A DNA stretch of 11,171 nt from Bacteriovoracaceae bacterium (GTDB lineage Bacteria; Bdellovibrionota; Bacteriovoracia; Bacteriovoracales; Bacteriovoracaceae): positions 1-11,171 of the forward strand of contig JBMYPC010000103.1 in the NCBI GenBank assembly GCA_049599895.1, written 5' to 3'. Made by a program: the position numbers and the translations under genes. Of this stretch, positions 548 to 11,171 are shown piece after piece. Position 1 is the stretch's first letter, and each line of letters begins with the position of its first letter. The notes beneath the pieces are model-generated. The model ran no database searches. It saw only the letters and a list, made by a program, of their open reading frames with translations, and was not told the origin of the DNA.

Positions 548-1546
548 TTAATGAGACCTGAGAGCCTCAACTCTTTTAGTTAACTTTTCAATCTTTTGCT
601 GCTGAGCTTTCATTGCCTCTACTAAAATGGGAACGATCTTCCCATAATCCACAGACAACCGTCCTCGGTTGTTTGGTCTAAAAACGGCTTCAGGAAGAAT
701 TTTCTCAATTTCCTGAGCAATGAATCCATAGTCGTAAGAATTATCTCTTTCCCATTGAAAATAATGTCCATTTAACTCATTAAATATCTCATAGGAGTTT
801 TCAATTGAGGTTATCGACTCTTTAAGAATTTCATCTGAATCATATTCATAGGACTTTGCTACAGTCTGTCCGATGATTTGCATAACTCCATCTACAGTAA
901 GTCCTTCAGCATCAGGGTCATCATTGTGAACAGATACTGAATCAACATTTACAGGAGACTCCGTTTCAATTCCCACTCTTCCATTATAATAAACAGATAC
1001 ACCTGAGCCCCTCGACCAAAGCTGATCATCAGTATCCGATAAAGATCGGCAAGTCTTAAGGTTCCCCCCTCCATCCATTTCAACATACATTTCAATTTTT
1101 TTAAAAAATGAATCAGGACCACCCTTTGCTTTTAACAATCCTTTTTGCTTTACCTTCACAAAAAGAAAGTCTTTAGGCCCATCCAGGAGTTCATACTCTA
1201 AAATATTAAAATTTGAGTGACCAAAATAATCTTTTTCACTACCAGCATTTCCAAGTGTGAAGTATTTTTTCTTTTCAATATTTCCAGATACTTCATCAAT
1301 TTTTTCGACGATAAAATTCGGCGTAAATGTTGATTCAAATGTTTTAAGACATTTTGCGGGATCAGTAAGAATGCTTCTTATCTCATTAACAGAGAGATTA
1401 ACATCAAGAGCGAACTGCCTTCTCACATTATTAACTTCGGCTTGTTTCATCATCCCAATGACATAATAAGCAAGGCCAGCGATCGCAACACCTAAAAGAA
1501 GCAAGACAGGAAGAATCCCTCCTTGTTCATTCTTTCTTAGAATCAT
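548..1546 (-). CDS. PilX/GspK-like (Glu5-lacking) prepilin fused to a short fibre segment and a C-terminal peptidase S74 intramolecular chaperone domain
   Basis: N-terminus MILRKNEQG|GILPVLLLLGVAIAGLAYYVIGM (basic leader, Gly, hydrophobic helix). Cys66 and Cys166. W..G...YYNGRVGI fibre-type motif. S74 hallmarks SDEILKESI, LNGHYFQW, YGFIAQEIEKILPEAV and LSVDYGKIVPILVEAMK, followed by a coiled-coil tail. ATGA overlap with the upstream paralogue. Confidence 0.85.
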   Translation of the reverse strand: MILRKNEQGGILPVLLLLGVAIAGLAYYVIGMMKQAEVNNVRRQFALDVNLSVNEIRSILTDPAKCLKTFESTFTPNFIVEKIDEVSGNIEKKKYFTLGNAGSEKDYFGHSNFNILEYELLDGPKDFLFVKVKQKGLLKAKGGPDSFFKKIEMYVEMDGGGNLKTCRSLSDTDDQLWSRGSGVSVYYNGRVGIETESPVNVDSVSVHNDDPDAEGLTVDGVMQIIGQTVAKSYEYDSDEILKESITSIENSYEIFNELNGHYFQWERDNSYDYGFIAQEIEKILPEAVFRPNNRGRLSVDYGKIVPILVEAMKAQQQKIEKLTKRVEALRSH

Positions 1547-2613
1547 TTACGACTCCCTTGGAGTCCTTTTGATTGTTCAAGAAATTCTATCGATTTTTGA
1601 AGTTTCGAGATCTGTTCATTTTGCTTTTTTAGAGCTTCAACTAGAACTGGTACAATCTTCACATAATCTACTGTGAGTGTCCCCTTTTCTGTTTTCGATC
1701 CGACAATTTCAGGCAAAACTCTCTGTACATTTTGCGCAATAAAACCGACATCTTCTTCCCCATTGTTTTTCCAATGAAACTTTACACCTTCAAGATTCTT
1801 TATTTTTTCTATAGGAGAAGAGATTTTCTTTATATTTTTCTTAAATCGAGAGTCTGATTCATACATAAATGATCCAGCCTTAATCGTGTCTGTCACATAA
1901 GTATCACCTAAAACAAAAAGATTTGGTAAGTCTTCTTCATTTAAGACGGGAGCACTTGGATCTCCAGATGGAGGATTTGGCATATCACTTCTTCCAATAA
2001 TGACTTTTCCTCCAGCGTAATAAATATCATCTCCAAGCCCTCTAGACCAAATCAGTGTATTTGATGCTAGTAAGGATCGACATCGGGAAACTCCTAAAGA
2101 TTTGTCTGAAGGATCCTTCCACTCGACATACATATTTAACTTTCTAATAAGCTCAGTTTGGGTGGGGCTGATTGTCGTTGATGATTTTTTATTTTGAATC
2201 TTTATCTCCAACACATCATCAGTTCCATCTTCTTTGAGTTCGTAGCTAAGAATTTTTAATTTTGAATTACCATACCCACTCTTCCCCTTTGCCGTAGACT
2301 TCAAAAAGTAAGACTCTTTTTCTTTTGAGTAAGTAATTGGATTTGTCGATGTATCTTTGTCGACTCCATTAACAATTGAATCAGGTTCAAGAGTTGATTC
2401 GAATGTTAGAGTACATTTCTGAGGATCTGTCAGGTGAGCATTAATTTCATTTATCGTTTGTGTGAGATCATTTCTAAATTCTTGTCTCGTTGTCGAGCTA
2501 CTTGTTAGCTGACTAATCATCACCATGGAATAAGCAAGACCACCTAAAATAACAGCACTGATTAATAACTCAATGAGTGTCACACCACCTTGGTTTCTAA
2601 TAAGGGACCTCAT
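1543..2613 (-). CDS. Type IV prepilin (N-terminal cleavage/methylation motif) fused to a short fibre segment and a C-terminal peptidase S74 intramolecular chaperone domain
   Basis: MRSLIRNQGG|VTLIELLISAVILGGLAY is a class III signal with Glu at +5. Cys67 and Cys178. WSRG..DDIYYAGGKVIIG motif. S74 motifs SDSRFKKNI, LEGVKFHWK, VGFIAQNVQRVLPEIV and LTVDYVKIVPVLVEALK. GGAGG ribosome-binding site upstream of the ATG. Confidence 0.9.
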   Translation of the reverse strand: MRSLIRNQGGVTLIELLISAVILGGLAYSMVMISQLTSSSTTRQEFRNDLTQTINEINAHLTDPQKCTLTFESTLEPDSIVNGVDKDTSTNPITYSKEKESYFLKSTAKGKSGYGNSKLKILSYELKEDGTDDVLEIKIQNKKSSTTISPTQTELIRKLNMYVEWKDPSDKSLGVSRCRSLLASNTLIWSRGLGDDIYYAGGKVIIGRSDMPNPPSGDPSAPVLNEEDLPNLFVLGDTYVTDTIKAGSFMYESDSRFKKNIKKISSPIEKIKNLEGVKFHWKNNGEEDVGFIAQNVQRVLPEIVGSKTEKGTLTVDYVKIVPVLVEALKKQNEQISKLQKSIEFLEQSKGLQGSRK

Positions 2614-8634: not shown

Positions 8635-9965
8635 AAAAAATTAACATTAATCCATTAGACAGGTCAAATTCGCATCTTCGCCGATACTTTGAGGGGAAGT
8701 CGTTTCTTATTGTTGACCCTTCTAACACGATTCGACCGATTATCAAGAAACTCATGATTGAACTTAAAGCCGAACAGATCAACAAAGTTCCCGAAACATT
8801 TGCTGAATACGAAGATATTATTAATAGCACCTGTCCCTATTATATTTTTTCAACACAGAACTTTAAAAATAAGTCAGTCGAACCCCTCGTCAATTTGCAC
8901 ACTCAAATCAGACCCGATCGAATGAACTCTGGCTTTTATGTTATTACAGACAATAACTCCATGGCCTCAGCCTCATCAAAGATTGATAGTGAAATCGATG
9001 CGGTTATCTCCGCTCCATTCACAAAGCAAAGTGTTTATAAGACGTTGTTTCAATCATTTAATAAAAAAGCGAAGCCAAGTGAGTATGACAAACTTGTCAA
9101 TGAAGGTCGAAAGTCATTCTTTGAAGAGGACTTTGAAACAGCAACTCAACCATTAAGAGAAGCAAAGTTTCTTGGAAAAAAACCAGTTCTTGCTCATTAT
9201 TATTTAGGTCTTATTGAATTTAAAAATAAAAACTTTGATCAGGCCATCGGCTGTTTTGAACAAGCTTTAATGATCAAACAAGATCACTATAGAAGTCTTA
9301 ACCGTTATTTAGAATCAGCACTTAAGATTAACAATTTAAAAAAGGCTTACAGTGCAGCCTCAACAATATTAGATCATTACCCTATTCCTGCTGATAAAAT
9401 CCCAACTTTTATAAAGCTCTCTGTTGCCAATCAAAAGTATGAAGATATCTTTCGTTATGCTGAACTCTTTACTGACCTTGAAGAAAGAAATGATGATCTC
9501 CATAAACACATTGCTGCCGGACTCGCCATTTGTGGTAAATATTTTCTGAAGGCAAACGATCTCAAAAAAGGGAAAGAGATTCTTGTGAAAGCTTCTGAGA
9601 TGGCGAGAGGGAACTTTCAAATTATTCAAACAGTTTGTCTCACGCTTATTAGTCATAAAATCACCTGTACTGTTGATGAAATCATGCTTCGAGTTGGTGA
9701 GTACCACGAATTTAGCGAAGAATATAAAGTCTTTGAGTTTGAAATTTTCAGTTATTATGGAAAGCCAGCAAAAATTGTTCAAGAAGGTCTTAACTACATT
9801 CAAAAGGGAGTGAAAACGCCTAGGATTTATGAAGCTGTAATTAAGGCATCAATTGATATTGAGAGAAAGAAAGATCTTATCGAAGATATTGTGATTGAGG
9901 CGAAAAAAGCTTTTCCGGAGCACGGAAATAAGTACGAGAGGATGTTAAAGAATATAAGTTATTAA
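8631..9965 (+). CDS. Degenerate receiver (REC-like) domain plus tetratricopeptide-repeat protein
   Basis: FLIVDPSNTIRPIIKKLM...PYYIFST...FYVIT...IDAVISAPF follows receiver topology. AHYYLGLIEFKNKNFDQAIGCFEQALMIKQDH is a canonical TPR. Confidence 0.8.
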   Translation: MKKININPLDRSNSHLRRYFEGKSFLIVDPSNTIRPIIKKLMIELKAEQINKVPETFAEYEDIINSTCPYYIFSTQNFKNKSVEPLVNLHTQIRPDRMNSGFYVITDNNSMASASSKIDSEIDAVISAPFTKQSVYKTLFQSFNKKAKPSEYDKLVNEGRKSFFEEDFETATQPLREAKFLGKKPVLAHYYLGLIEFKNKNFDQAIGCFEQALMIKQDHYRSLNRYLESALKINNLKKAYSAASTILDHYPIPADKIPTFIKLSVANQKYEDIFRYAELFTDLEERNDDLHKHIAAGLAICGKYFLKANDLKKGKEILVKASEMARGNFQIIQTVCLTLISHKITCTVDEIMLRVGEYHEFSEEYKVFEFEIFSYYGKPAKIVQEGLNYIQKGVKTPRIYEAVIKASIDIERKKDLIEDIVIEAKKAFPEHGNKYERMLKNISY

Positions 9966-9981
9966 TTGTTCGATTGCACAG

Positions 9982-10011
9982 TTGACGGATCATCAACAAA
10001 AAATTTAGTAT
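9982..10011 (+). promoter_or_regulatory. Putative sigma70 promoter for the tRNA locus
   Basis: TTGACG (9982-9987), 18-nt spacer, TAGTAT (10006-10011), about 25 nt upstream of the first tRNA 5' end at 10037. Confidence 0.55.
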
Positions 10012-10033
10012 TCACCACCTAGATCTCACTAGA

Positions 10034-10049
10034 TAAGCGGGTGTAGCTC
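10034..10049 (+). repeat. Duplicated 5' fragment of tRNA-Gly (3 nt of flank plus tRNA nt 1-13)
   Basis: TAAGCGGGTGTAGCTC at 10034-10049 is identical to 10147-10162. Confidence 0.95.
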
Positions 10050-10146
10050 CCGGTCTGCAGCAAAAGTGTCCAGAGGACAGTTTTGATGCACGAGCGGACA
10101 GACAGATCTCGTTAAGAGATCTGGTAAAACACCAAGTTTCGAATTT
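10050..10146 (+). mobile_element. Putative miniature hairpin element, copy A (97 bp), between 16-bp direct repeats of the tRNA 5' end
   Basis: Begins CCGG. The 50-nt core 10050-10099 folds as an imperfect hairpin and is 38/50 identical to the reverse complement of 10276-10325. A second palindrome, CAGATCTC-GTTAA-GAGATCTG, lies at 10103-10123. Mobility is inferred. Confidence 0.7.
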
Positions 10147-10149
10147 TAA

Positions 10150-10225
10150 GCGGGTGTAGCTCAGTTGATAGAGTGGTTGCTTGCCATGCAACAGGTCGTG
10201 GGTTTGAGTCCCATCACCCGCTCCA
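10150..10225 (+). tRNA. tRNA-Gly (anticodon GCC)
   Basis: 76-nt cloverleaf: acceptor GCGGGTG/CACCCGC, D-stem GCTC/GAGT, anticodon stem GTTGC/GCAAC with loop TTGCCAT (GCC at 10183-10185), T-stem GTGGG/CCCAT, discriminator T73 and encoded CCA. G1-C72, C2-G71 and U73 are bacterial Gly identity elements. Confidence 0.96.
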
Positions 10226-10325
10226 CTATTCCAAGTCTTTTAGTTTTCAAAGTAAGTGCTTATGGCCTGCAACGAGTCCGCTTATGCATCAATGCTTGCC
10301 ACTGGCAACCATTGCTGCAAACCGG
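10226..10325 (-). mobile_element. Putative miniature hairpin element, copy B (100 bp), between 44-bp direct repeats of the tRNA 3' half
   Basis: On the minus strand it begins CCGG at 10325 and reads CCGGTTTGCAGCAATGGTTGCCAGTGGCAAGCATTGATGCATAAGCGGAC, the same hairpin as copy A. Mobility is inferred. Confidence 0.7.
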
Positions 10326-10369
10326 TGCCATGCAACAGGTCGTGGGTTTGAGTCCCATCACCCGCTCCA
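10326..10369 (+). repeat. Duplicated 3' fragment of tRNA-Gly (anticodon loop to CCA), possibly also an att core
   Basis: The 44 nt TGCCATGCAACAGGTCGTGGGTTTGAGTCCCATCACCCGCTCCA are identical to 10182-10225. Confidence 0.97.
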
Positions 10370-10402
10370 AAAAATTCACTAACATTCGATAAACCAAAAT
10401 AA

Positions 10403-10440
10403 TCACCAATGATTTTAAACATTTGTAATCATTAGGGTGA
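10403..10440. repeat. Imperfect inverted repeat downstream of the tRNA 3' fragment (possible terminator or att-associated structure)
   Basis: TCACC-AATGATT (10403-10414) pairs with AATCATT-AG-GGTGA (10427-10440). AT-rich, with no clean poly-T tail. Confidence 0.45.
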
Positions 10441-10493
10441 CTTATCTTAGAACTTTTAAACATTTCACAGAATTTCAGCTTATTTCAAAATTT

Positions 10494-10521
10494 GGTTACT
10501 TTTTGGTTACCCATAGGTTAC
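10494..10521 (+). repeat. Three GGTTAC direct repeats at 11-bp period; putative tyrosine-integrase arm-type sites
   Basis: GGTTAC at 10494-10499, 10505-10510 and 10516-10521. Confidence 0.7.
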
Positions 10522-10774
10522 CTCGTAGCATACCTATTTTCTGAGCTACAAACCGTAGCACTTAATCACTCTAAACGACTTAAATTAAAAAACAAATTTG
10601 CGGCAAGTGAGCTTGCCAAAAATTTTTACTTTAAAACAAGCGCTGCCTTGCCATTTGGAAGGCACACCCATTTTTCATTCATTCAAAATTGTAAAGCAAT
10701 AGATCTAGAGAGCTATTTGGAAAGAGCAATTAAAGATATTGATATTAACTTTTTGATTCAAAGGAGAATGCAAA

Positions 10775-11171
10775 ATGCAGCAGACCATTGAAGGAAAATG
10801 CGACAAAAAAAGCACTACTGATGCAGCAGTGATTTTAAAGAAAATGCGCGACTTAAAAGGACTTTCTCGCAAACAAGCTGGAATTATTTTTAACGTCACA
10901 TTTAAGACTATTGAAAAGCTTGAAAATGGACGTGGCAAAATTGATGAGCAAAGACTTGTCTCATTTGCAACAGGCTACGGTTTCACACTTGATGACCTTA
11001 TGAAAATTAAGAATGGGCAATACGACACGGACTTATCCTTAAAAAGTCGTATCAAAAAAGAGAAAGACCCACTTAGAAGGGACAGGAGGTTTTGCAAACC
11101 AAATATAACAAAAGAGTGCAAAGCTTTAAGGCAACTTCGAGAGAAAAGAAATATATCTCAATACAAACTAA
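10775..11171 (+). CDS. XRE-family helix-turn-helix protein with at least two HTH domains; truncated by the window end and absent from the ORF track
   Basis: AAGGAG at 10761-10766 and ATG at 10775. The open frame reads MQQTIEGKCDKKSTTDAAVILKKMRDLKGLSRKQAGIIFNVTFKTIEKLENGRGKIDEQRLVSFATGYGFTLDDL...KECKALRQLREKRNISQYKL. The first XRE domain is complete and the second begins at LRQLREKRNISQ. Confidence 0.88.
   Translation, partial: MQQTIEGKCDKKSTTDAAVILKKMRDLKGLSRKQAGIIFNVTFKTIEKLENGRGKIDEQRLVSFATGYGFTLDDLMKIKNGQYDTDLSLKSRIKKEKDPLRRDRRFCKPNITKECKALRQLREKRNISQYKL

Follow-up and report, generated by a model that had tools for sequence, protein, structure and literature searches.

Hairpin repeats bracketed by duplicated gene ends at a tRNA-Gly gene and other loci of a Bacteriovoracaceae genome

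To our knowledge, the way in which the REP-like and MITE-like hairpin repeats of bacteria spread in vivo is still poorly understood. Several described systems offer points of comparison for a repeat that sits at the end of a gene. Integrative islands and phages carry a replacement gene end in their attP, as with tRNA 3' ends and with phage 21 and e14 in icd, and a 44-nt block that runs from the anticodon loop to CCA has the classical shape of a tRNA att site. One-ended or read-through mobilisation is known from IS91/ISCR, from Helitrons, and from the 3' transduction of L1. Homology-facilitated illegitimate recombination and microhomology-mediated template switching leave two unlike joints, of which one is homologous or microhomologous and the other non-homologous, together with short templated patches and local duplications. 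The attC sites of integrons are made up of R''/L''-L'/R' boxes with extrahelical bases, and are found in cassette arrays with an adjacent integron integrase.

The palindromes of REPs carry a tag, GTAG or CGTC, at one end, and REPs that overlap stop codons are mentioned in the same paper, the main text of which does not contain the word "duplication" (PMC3733652). In the open-access text that was searched, no account of hairpin repeats between duplicated gene ends was found, and on repeats in the Bacteriovoracaceae there was nothing beyond a remark on plasmids (PMC3526173). Here we describe such an arrangement at a tRNA-Gly(GCC) gene and follow it through the genome of the bacterium in which it occurs. 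The stretch of DNA that was analysed, referred to below as the window, is the whole of an 11,171-bp contig (C103) of a genome of 266 contigs, 3.27 Mb and 37.7% G+C, and all loci discussed come from this one 266-contig MAG.

The intact tRNA gene stands between two elements, A and B, that lie on opposite strands (Table 1). A first-pass annotation of the window had claimed duplications of 16 and 44 bp reaching position -3 of the tRNA and exactly its CCA end, and both were recovered as exact repeats of the gene located by ARAGORN and Rfam. The same annotation had held that the two elements share one layout, with a precise CCGG junction and a length of about 100 bp. This description also stood, as both A and B, each read in its own orientation, have the outer tRNA fragment followed at once by CCGG. 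The promoter-like sequence that had been placed beside the outer 5' fragment was found there by a consensus scan (three sites against a shuffle mean of 1.4), and judging from its sequence it likely drives transcription through the outer fragment and A into the tRNA, the transcript of which would probably be trimmed by RNase P. The putative integrase arm sites that had been noted at this locus were not confirmed; the window contains no integrase gene, only a downstream HTH gene that is cut by the contig end, and no contigs overlapping beyond position 11171 were found. A search of Rfam over positions 9800-10800, with E values up to 10, returned the tRNA and chance-level matches only, and the 44-mer occurs no more than twice in the assembly. 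The repeats at tRNA-Gly are exact, and their identity gives no clue to which copy came first.

Table 1. Features of the tRNA-Gly(GCC) locus, in coordinates of the window
Feature	Position	Strand	Remarks
Sigma-70-like promoter match	9982-10011	+	TTGACG-18 nt-TAGTAT; upstream of outer 5' fragment; consensus scan only
Outer copy, tRNA 5' end (-3 to +13)	10034-10049	+	Exact 16-nt direct repeat; adjoins CCGG foot of A
Element A, 97 nt	10050-10146	+	CM R1 65.7 bits; fold z = -6.07
A, hp1 hairpin	10050-10100		
A, second hairpin (hp2)	about 10103-10123		Family similarity stops near 10136
A, 10-nt filler	10137-10146	+	Between right end of family similarity and inner repeat (8-copy alignment)
Inner copy, 16-nt repeat (3 nt leader + tRNA 1-13)	10147-10162	+	Exact direct repeat
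Intact tRNA-Gly(GCC)	10150-10225	+	ARAGORN; Rfam RF00005, 64.5 bits
Inner copy, 44-nt repeat (tRNA 33-76)	10182-10225	+	Exact direct repeat
30-nt stretch (last 6 nt of tRNA + adjoining 24 nt of B tail)	10220-10249		Identical to intergenic C178:2572-2601 of the same genome (G000)
Element B, 100 nt	10226-10325	-	CM R1 71.1 bits
B, tail	10226-10274		
B, hp1 hairpin	10275-10325	-	CCGG foot 10325-10322
Outer copy, tRNA 3' part (33-76, exact CCA end)	10326-10369	+	Adjoins CCGG foot of B; then unique downstream DNA

When A is compared with the reverse complement of B, the two can be aligned over about the first 50 columns; this part folds into an extended hairpin of 48 nt, in which the differences between A and B are largely compensatory, and the tails are unrelated. 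The best explanation for A and B is that they belong, independently of each other, to a family of small REP/MITE-like repeats that are structured, non-coding and specific to this lineage. We named the family hp1 after the hairpin of 48-52 nt, footed by CCG(G), that opens each element. An alignment of 22 copies contains 18 predicted pairs, 10 of them with compensatory double changes, and 99.7% of its cells are paired, a share that falls to 32-40% if the 3' partners are shifted by 1-3 columns. Conserved features of the hairpin are the CCG...CGG foot (all 22 copies start with CCG), an unpaired position 4 (G4), a G/G mismatch, and an apical CCAG-N-GG. Six copies were found in the genome with a strict pattern, 45 with nhmmer, and 75 with the CM at E <= 0.01. 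Run across 41 genomes, the CM returned 69 copies in the bacterium's own genome, two partial copies in G013, two copies in G036, and none in the other 38. The hp1 pattern had no exact match among genomes representing each GTDB species, with the bacterium's own left out, and no match in IMG/VR viral contigs; in phage records only the tRNA part was matched.

Element A belongs to a subfamily of 87-nt units with two hairpins, hp1-hp2, of which eight copies (A and seven others) were aligned, and the similarity among them stops at a common right end, ...AAAAC-N-AAGAG. Element B has only hp1 in common with A and continues into a different tail, the junction of which with the tRNA falls inside a 6-nt overlap (microhomology). 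The foot of the hairpin is the fixed junction point of these elements, while the opposite end is not precise and may include additional nucleotides. No target motif was seen in the left flank of hp1, where the commonest triplet occurs at 8 of 69 copies, A occupies position -1 in 36 of 69, and the last three bases are diverse.

The genome was scanned for exact direct repeats of at least 14 nt lying 40-320 nt apart, and 146 pairs were kept in 3.27 Mb. These pairs are mostly coding tandem repeats, and because pairs that include tRNA sequence nevertheless occur at 5 of the 28 tRNA genes, the pattern is far from chance. A survey of all tRNA genes for adjacent fragments joined to CCGG had been proposed in the first-pass annotation, and it was productive: four of the five genes that have copies of their own ends also have hp1. 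In addition to tRNA-Gly(GCC), with its 16-nt (5') and 44-nt (3') repeats at A and B, these are tRNA-Cys, where 14-16 nt of the 3' end are repeated in two tandem 100-nt units that each terminate in hp1-CCGG abutting the repeat; tRNA-Pro(GGG), where 18-19 nt of the 5' end are followed by a degenerate hp1 (CM 11.4 bits); and tRNA-Gly(TCC), where the 15-nt repeat consists of 10 nt of the 3' end and 5 nt of trailer. The fifth gene, tRNA-Ala(GGC), has a repeat of 22 nt exact, or 29 nt with one mismatch, and no hp1. A diverged 5' copy lies near tRNA-Leu(CAA).

Wherever this layout occurs, the outer copy stops at the foot of the hairpin. On its far side the repeat extends to within a few nucleotides of the end of the gene, at -3 for A, 0 for B, +2 for tRNA-Cys, -1 for tRNA-Pro, and +5 for tRNA-Gly(TCC). 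At gene ends the element is flanked on both sides by the stretch from junction to gene end, so that the gene is restored, and units of element plus repeat may occur in tandem. At the tRNA-Gly loci of 19 relatives the CCA is not followed by a comparable hairpin, and Rfam found nothing in the inserts present at six relatives' loci; inverted copies of the D-arm were seen in G037 and G038.

Repeats of this kind in a draft genome invite the suspicion of an assembly artefact. The MAG is rich in repeats and divided into 266 contigs, assembler overlaps occur at contig ends, and B is possibly collapsed. An artefact is nonetheless the least probable of the explanations considered, as the independent assembly of run X1 (Logan contigs 9600-10211, 10196-10318, 10289-10355 and 10340-10800) covers each junction with 0 differences, and the junctions between B and the 44-mer are present in run X2, from another study, as well. 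Several 55-nt "repeats" at contig ends are assembler overlaps. Run X1 is probably the source sample of the genome, and no joints that skip the elements, as empty sites would give, were reported in it. Its contigs have a depth of 26.3 and 18.3 in B-specific sequence and 30.5 in the 44-mer, compared with 9.68 and 8.4 in the flanks; contig depth is not copy number, and the unit of B plus 44 nt may be present two to three times in tandem, collapsed to one in the assembly. Run X2 yielded a 174-nt contig with the same 30 nt at both ends, that is, a closed 144-nt cycle of B and the 44-mer, which is either a tandem array or a circle; positions 9723-10132 are not covered in this run. Runs X3 and X4 gave only the tRNA parts of other organisms.

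The runs that contain DNA of this genome are seawater or marine metagenomes. The lipoamide dehydrogenase is at most 79% identical to those of Bacteriovoracaceae and Halobacteriovoraceae MAGs, which makes the bacterium an uncultured, marine and predatory member of this group. A comparison of the orthologous locus in relatives had been suggested as a way to find empty or single-element alleles, and it brought none to light: the 40 GTDB relatives, none of the same genus, matched only at the tRNA. Metagenome scans with the neighbouring TPR protein and with a 32-nt tRNA stretch found no close relative or empty site.

The opposed orientation of A and B raises the further question of whether they arrived together. 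The two hp1 copies are inverted with their CCGG feet outermost, and inverted hp1 doublets exist elsewhere in the genome, as pairs on C16, C33, C79, C148 and C163. The 276 bp from 10050 to 10325 might on this reading be a single composite, similar to a REPIN doublet, with inverted hp1 ends and a cargo tRNA-Gly, that landed in a resident tRNA-Gly gene and deleted its positions 14-32, leaving the outer fragments as the remains of the old gene. We consider this quite improbable. The layout is one-sided at the other tRNAs (3' at Cys and Gly-TCC, 5' at Pro), the tails of A and B are unrelated, the B-specific contigs are two to three times as deep as the one covering A, and B with its 44 nt forms a cycle of its own in X2; moreover, it would take a coincidence for a cargo tRNA to land in its own gene. 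No further tRNA with inverted hp1 copies on both sides, at a site outside tRNA genes, was seen among the 28. On C155 two inverted hp1 copies, separated by 4.4 kb, were considered as an autonomous element; this was rejected, as the genes between them are ordinary (a tadA-like deaminase, PilZ, DUF481 and CBS).

The layout is not confined to tRNA genes. It was found at the 3' ends of three ORFs, on C158, C8 and C15, with repeats of 39-45 nt. The order there is the gene with its complete end, 0-110 nt of further sequence, hp1 in reverse orientation down to its foot, and, directly at the foot, a second copy of the last 13-15 codons followed by the native downstream DNA. The far end of the repeat includes the stop codon at C8 and C15 and just misses it at C158, where the protein is one residue longer. 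At C8 the whole "element" is a 54-nt hairpin, and at C15 there is no identical core beside the junction. The two copies of the repeat differ at 7 positions at C8 and at about 9 at C15, and all of these differences, including Ser TCC/AGC and the stop codons TAG/TAA, are synonymous in the frame of the gene. From this it follows that the two copies at each of these loci evolved in separate lineages, both of them under coding constraint. Such synonymous-only divergence points either to a gene end that was borne by the element from another lineage or to a later allelic replacement of the functional copy. An origin of the diverged copies from paralogues was rejected, since each copy is unique to its own locus.

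These loci bear on the enzymes that might be responsible. The first-pass annotation had argued that neither the fixed-length duplication of a transposase nor an integrase fits well, and the wider survey, with its repeats of 14-45 nt, unrelated cores, and both 5' and 3' gene ends, upheld this. A DDE-type fixed duplication is excluded by these facts. A site-specific integrase is very unlikely because one hairpin family meets unrelated cores at 5' and 3' ends, with elements down to 54 nt. The related proposal, in which tyrosine-integrase elements left the repeats as their attL/attR identity blocks in the tRNA and later shrank by deletion to about 100 bp, draws on the tRNA att-site shape of B's 44-mer, on seven Phage_integrase matches (tyrosine recombinases) in the genome, on the HTH gene downstream in the window, and on one real island beside tRNA-Ser(GGA), with its 16-nt 3' fragment on C193. 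It is very improbable, for the same foot abuts repeats of unrelated sequence and length (both ends of Gly-GCC, Cys, Pro, Gly-TCC and the three ORF ends), and repeats of 5' ends are atypical for integrases. The mere 54-nt hairpin at C8, the junction without identical core at C15, the lack of an integrase in the window and that of a third 44-mer in the assembly tell against it as well.

Reverse transcription was weighed for similar reasons. Here an end-to-end template switch would take place between hp1 RNA, with its 5' end at CCGG, and tRNAs, with their 3' CCA, and the cDNA would recombine into the chromosome. Such a switch would account for junctions at mature tRNA ends, for the direct joining of CCA to CCG at 6 of the 28 tRNAs, and for tRNA repeats that end at CCA or within 3 nt of +1. 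We regard it as extremely improbable, as the sole RVT_1 gene encodes a DRT8-type defence reverse transcriptase located in an island, and B joins the tRNA in antisense to hp1 in sense, which is impossible for one cDNA of two sense RNAs. Furthermore, the repeats at Gly(TCC) and Cys overshoot the CCA by 5 and 2 nt, and those at ORFs end at stop codons, not at RNA ends. A single Y1_Tnp match, on C53, is RAYT-like (PF01797, 30.2 bits, above the cut-off; NCBIfam REP_Tyr_transpos, 63.6 bits, below the cut-off of 80), and the repeat that flanks its gene in inverted orientation is another hairpin, 19 nt long and present 22 times in exact form in the genome. The idea that hp1 is the RAYT's own repeat is not supported, as the hp1 CM scores only 5.5 bits there. 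None of the genome's RAYT-like Y1 transposase, tyrosine recombinases and reverse transcriptase could be tied to hp1.

Most hp1 copies lack flanking repeats. An exact-suffix test found them at 8 of the 45 nhmmer copies, and a local-alignment test, in which a repeat had to score above the 99th percentile of 300 random controls and end within 2 nt of the foot, found them at 10 of 69. These ten include C105 and C163, which are neighbouring repeat modules, the one on C163 reaching the contig end. Where present, the flank repeats measure 14-45 nt. Because 59 of the 69 copies have no repeat that passes both of these thresholds, duplication is not an obligatory product of hairpin placement. At six of the 28 tRNAs (Val-GAC, Tyr, Val-TAC, Arg-ACG, Trp and Ala-TGC) an hp1 copy on the strand of the tRNA begins right at the CCA end (distance 0 or -1) with no duplication, and the 5' end of tRNA-Ser(GGA) is met by one further copy, which lies on the opposite strand. 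By our arithmetic, the chance expectation for contacts between hp1 and tRNA ends, given about 70 copies in 3.27 Mb, is far below one. On contig C193 a 16-nt fragment of the tRNA-Ser 3' end is followed by hp1, beside an integrase, and tRNA-Ser(GGA) itself adjoins the DRT8-type reverse transcriptase; the arrangement looks like an ordinary island that split the tRNA from its hairpin trailer.

In the main rival explanation the hairpins are static residents of 3' and 5' flanks, for instance with a terminator-like or RNA-stabilising role, and the duplications are local errors of replication. A nascent strand would fold at the palindrome, leave its template at the foot, and re-prime nearby, so that a templated patch is laid down at the foot and selection shapes the survivors. 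Every junction lies exactly at the end of a palindrome, one junction shows 6-nt microhomology with a patch common to another locus, tandem units exist, no transposase is tied to hp1, and the six tRNAs abutted without duplication look as they would if hp1 were a resident trailer. We nevertheless judge this rival unlikely. About 70 lineage-specific copies, with near-identical 87-nt units at unrelated loci and with defined ends, speak of spread and not of 70 origins. In B it is the outer 44-mer, and not the hairpin, that is followed by the native downstream DNA, a pure tandem duplication of tRNA 33-76 plus B gives the wrong order, and the synonymous-only divergence at C8 and C15 needs a further event.

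We tentatively favour a structured repeat with the hairpin foot as its fixed junction, copied into the target with the help of homology or microhomology in such a way that the gene end is rebuilt. In this account the element would exist as a single strand whose 5' end is fixed at the hairpin foot and whose 3' end continues into flanking DNA. Where homologous or microhomologous to the end of a target gene, this 3' end would pair there at the replication fork and be copied in, and the 5' end at the hairpin foot would be joined to a nascent 3' end already beyond the pairing point. The stretch between the pairing point and the joining point would be duplicated in the process, and selection would retain only insertions whose duplication reaches the gene end. 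Tandem units could result from unequal exchange between repeats or from rolling-circle copying of an excised circle of element and repeat. A nick-primed copy-in with one precise end had already been put forward, as one of two possibilities, in the first-pass annotation; the precise CCGG foot and the variable duplications that leave the tRNA intact were borne out, and no enzyme and no empty or single-element allele was found. Plain fill-in of a staggered cut is disfavoured because of the filler in A, because of the C178-identical stretch, with its 6-nt microhomology, in B, and because of the diverged repeat copies at C8 and C15.

A bolder reading, which we hold to be possible but rather doubtful, is that hp1 units represent a novel type of ultra-small mobile DNA, of 54-100 nt and with no ORF, in which single strands anchored at the foot would capture the end of a neighbouring gene and re-enter by pairing there, so rebuilding the 5' and 3' ends of tRNAs and the 3' ends of ORFs. 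They would then represent an integrase-free miniature of the gene-end restoration practised by islands, and might pass through circles of 100-150 nt that are copied several times round.

The observation itself is real and non-random: the repeats are small, structured and interspersed, and their insertion scar is unusual in restoring the gene. The layout seen across genes suggests an undescribed way for tiny repeats to spread. The scars are informative in several respects: the junction at the foot is invariant, the gene-restoring duplications are variable, filler and microhomology occur at the other end, units stand in tandem, and coding constraint has shaped the divergence of copies. Taken together, they narrow the mechanism to a process that is single-stranded, coupled to replication and assisted by homology, and they show that essential genes can survive invasion by tiny repeats. 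Should this be confirmed, it would mean for annotation that stray tRNA fragments need not mark islands. It would also bear on models of how repeat populations persist within genomes, and would possibly provide a natural example of scar-tolerant insertion into tRNA genes.

Of the known systems, hp1 behaves most like the REP/REPIN repeats and the miniatures of the IS200/IS605 type, without fitting what defines either. The REP/BIME/REPIN repeats, which go with RAYT (Y1 HUH) transposases, resemble hp1 in being short imperfect palindromes with tens of extragenic, lineage-specific copies, often at gene 3' ends, sometimes in inverted doublets and usually without target duplication, and a RAYT-like gene is present in this genome. 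hp1 thus shares with REPs the many extragenic structured palindromes, but it is longer, at 48-52 nt, it has a CCG(G) foot in place of the GTAG/CGTC tag, and it is not the repeat that flanks the RAYT-like gene. Unlike DDE-derived MITEs, the 87-nt unit has unlike ends, and flank repeats are mostly absent or 14-45 nt long. Miniatures of the IS200/IS605 type (PATEs) are similar to hp1-hp2 units in having a hairpin near each end, no terminal inverted repeats, defined ends and usually no target duplication. They differ in that hp1 has no conserved target tetra- or pentanucleotide at its left and places its hairpin at the very end of the element; the genome, moreover, has no TnpA of that type apart from the RAYT-like gene. 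As regards attC sites, hp1 has conserved unpaired bases (G4 and the G/G mismatch) in a covarying stem, and the best integrase tested scored 51.7 bits, far below the integron-integrase cut-off of 265.

The att duplications of tyrosine integrases at tRNA genes are matched in shape by B's 44-mer, but the same hairpin abuts 5'-end repeats and unrelated cores. Islands and phages share with these loci the order of an intact gene with an element-proximal end, the element, and the displaced native end, and there too the copies can differ by synonymous changes only; the elements described here differ in measuring 54-100 nt, lacking an integrase, and occupying many unrelated sites that include tRNA 5' ends. 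One-ended mobilisation likewise combines one precise end with a variable end that holds pieces of former flanks, as the filler in A and the C178 stretch in B may be, but neither a Rep/HUH Y2 transposase nor a reverse transcriptase is tied to hp1, which is also far smaller. Homology-facilitated and microhomology-mediated recombination, lastly, produces the same types of joint as are found at these loci, with the difference that the non-homologous joint here is always the foot of hp1.

The foot of hp1, the lineage-specific hairpin repeat whose CCG(G) end forms a fixed junction point, was found joined within its own genome to truncated hp1 copies, which had been cut after 29 nt (...CCAGTGGCA) at three loci and after 14-16 nt (...GCAGCAA) at two. 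The hp1 foot therefore also joins broken members of its own family. Separately, on either side of the hp1-containing composite near tRNA-Arg(TCT) stands a copy of an imperfect repeat, some 40 nt of the 3' flank of the tRNA, and this repeat starts exactly behind the CCA. The regions with the reverse transcriptase and the integrase on contigs C155 and C193 are probably a single island at tRNA-Ser(GGA), divided between the two contigs.

X2, a sequencing run from another study, contains junctions between element B and the 44-mer (nt 33-76 of tRNA-Gly(GCC)). One of its Logan contigs, 174 nt long, joins up with its own start to form a 144-nt cycle consisting of B and the 44-mer (window 10182-10325). 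Depth in X2 was 5.2 for this contig versus 2.5 for the flank, and the self-closing contig represents a small circle or else an array of tandem units.

Elsewhere in the window, two paralogues both carry a C-terminal Peptidase_S74 (endosialidase chaperone) domain, and one of them has an N-terminal prepilin-type methylation motif. The HTH_3 gene, which contains a 28-nt imperfect repeat within the start of its ORF, is incomplete and continues past the contig end; no contig overlapping the window end was found. The window contains no integrase gene.

Features in the window, in its genome (contigs C6 to C193) and at tRNA loci of other genera of the phylum
Feature	Location	Detail
Peptidase_S74 ORFs, 332 and 356 aa	window 548-2613, - strand	neighbouring paralogues
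AT-rich stretch containing two copies of TTTTAAACATTT among its short direct repeats, then HTH_3 gene downstream	window 10370-10560 and 10775-11170	
Full hp1 + 29-nt truncated hp1	C57:18725, C88:1642, C6:61	
Full hp1 + 14-16-nt truncated hp1	C53:16206, C88:6109	
Composite containing hp1	C30:25960-26263	downstream of tRNA-Arg(TCT)
DRT8-type defence reverse transcriptase	C155:264-1817	directly downstream of tRNA-Ser(GGA)
Region with 16-nt tRNA-Ser 3' fragment, then hp1	C193:213-3311	beside tyrosine integrase and M3 peptidase
RAYT-like Y1 transposase, 191 aa	C53:3513-4088 (= L047:1468-2043)	
Upstream 5'-end copies, tRNA-Gly	L008/L159	genome G038
Upstream 5'-end copies, tRNA-Asp	L162	genome G038
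Upstream 5'-end copies, tRNA-Met	L183	genome G038
Upstream 5'-end copies, tRNA-Gly-CCC	L021	genome G037
Upstream 5'-end copies, tRNA-Gly	L023/L182	genome G023
Upstream 5'-end copies, tRNA-Gly	L016	genome G030
Antisense D-arm copy, tRNA-Met	nt 12-26	exact
Antisense D-arm copy, tRNA-Asp	nt 11-26	
Antisense D-arm copy, tRNA-Gly-CCC	nt 10-43	diverged

Among tRNA genes from other genera of the phylum, those in the table have their own 5' end repeated once or twice at 56-304 nt upstream. These copies comprise nt 1-17 to 1-23 of the tRNA, with the end point in the D-loop, and some are arranged in tandem units broken by scaffold gaps. The inserts at these loci are unrelated to hp1 and gave no match in an Rfam search; three of them contain an antisense copy of the D-arm region of their own tRNA, spanning the junction. 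Fragments were present at 4 of 19 tRNA-Gly loci and, in a sample of three genomes, at 4 of 35 distinct tRNAs, a count that excludes two rows for a neighbouring tRNA pair with a common 14-mer.

The RAYT-like gene on C53 is flanked on both sides by 36-nt inverted repeats containing a 19-nt hairpin. This hairpin occurs in 22 exact copies across the genome, some of them arranged in tandem with a unit length of about 44-48 nt. The genome thus has a second REP family, and a very homogeneous one.
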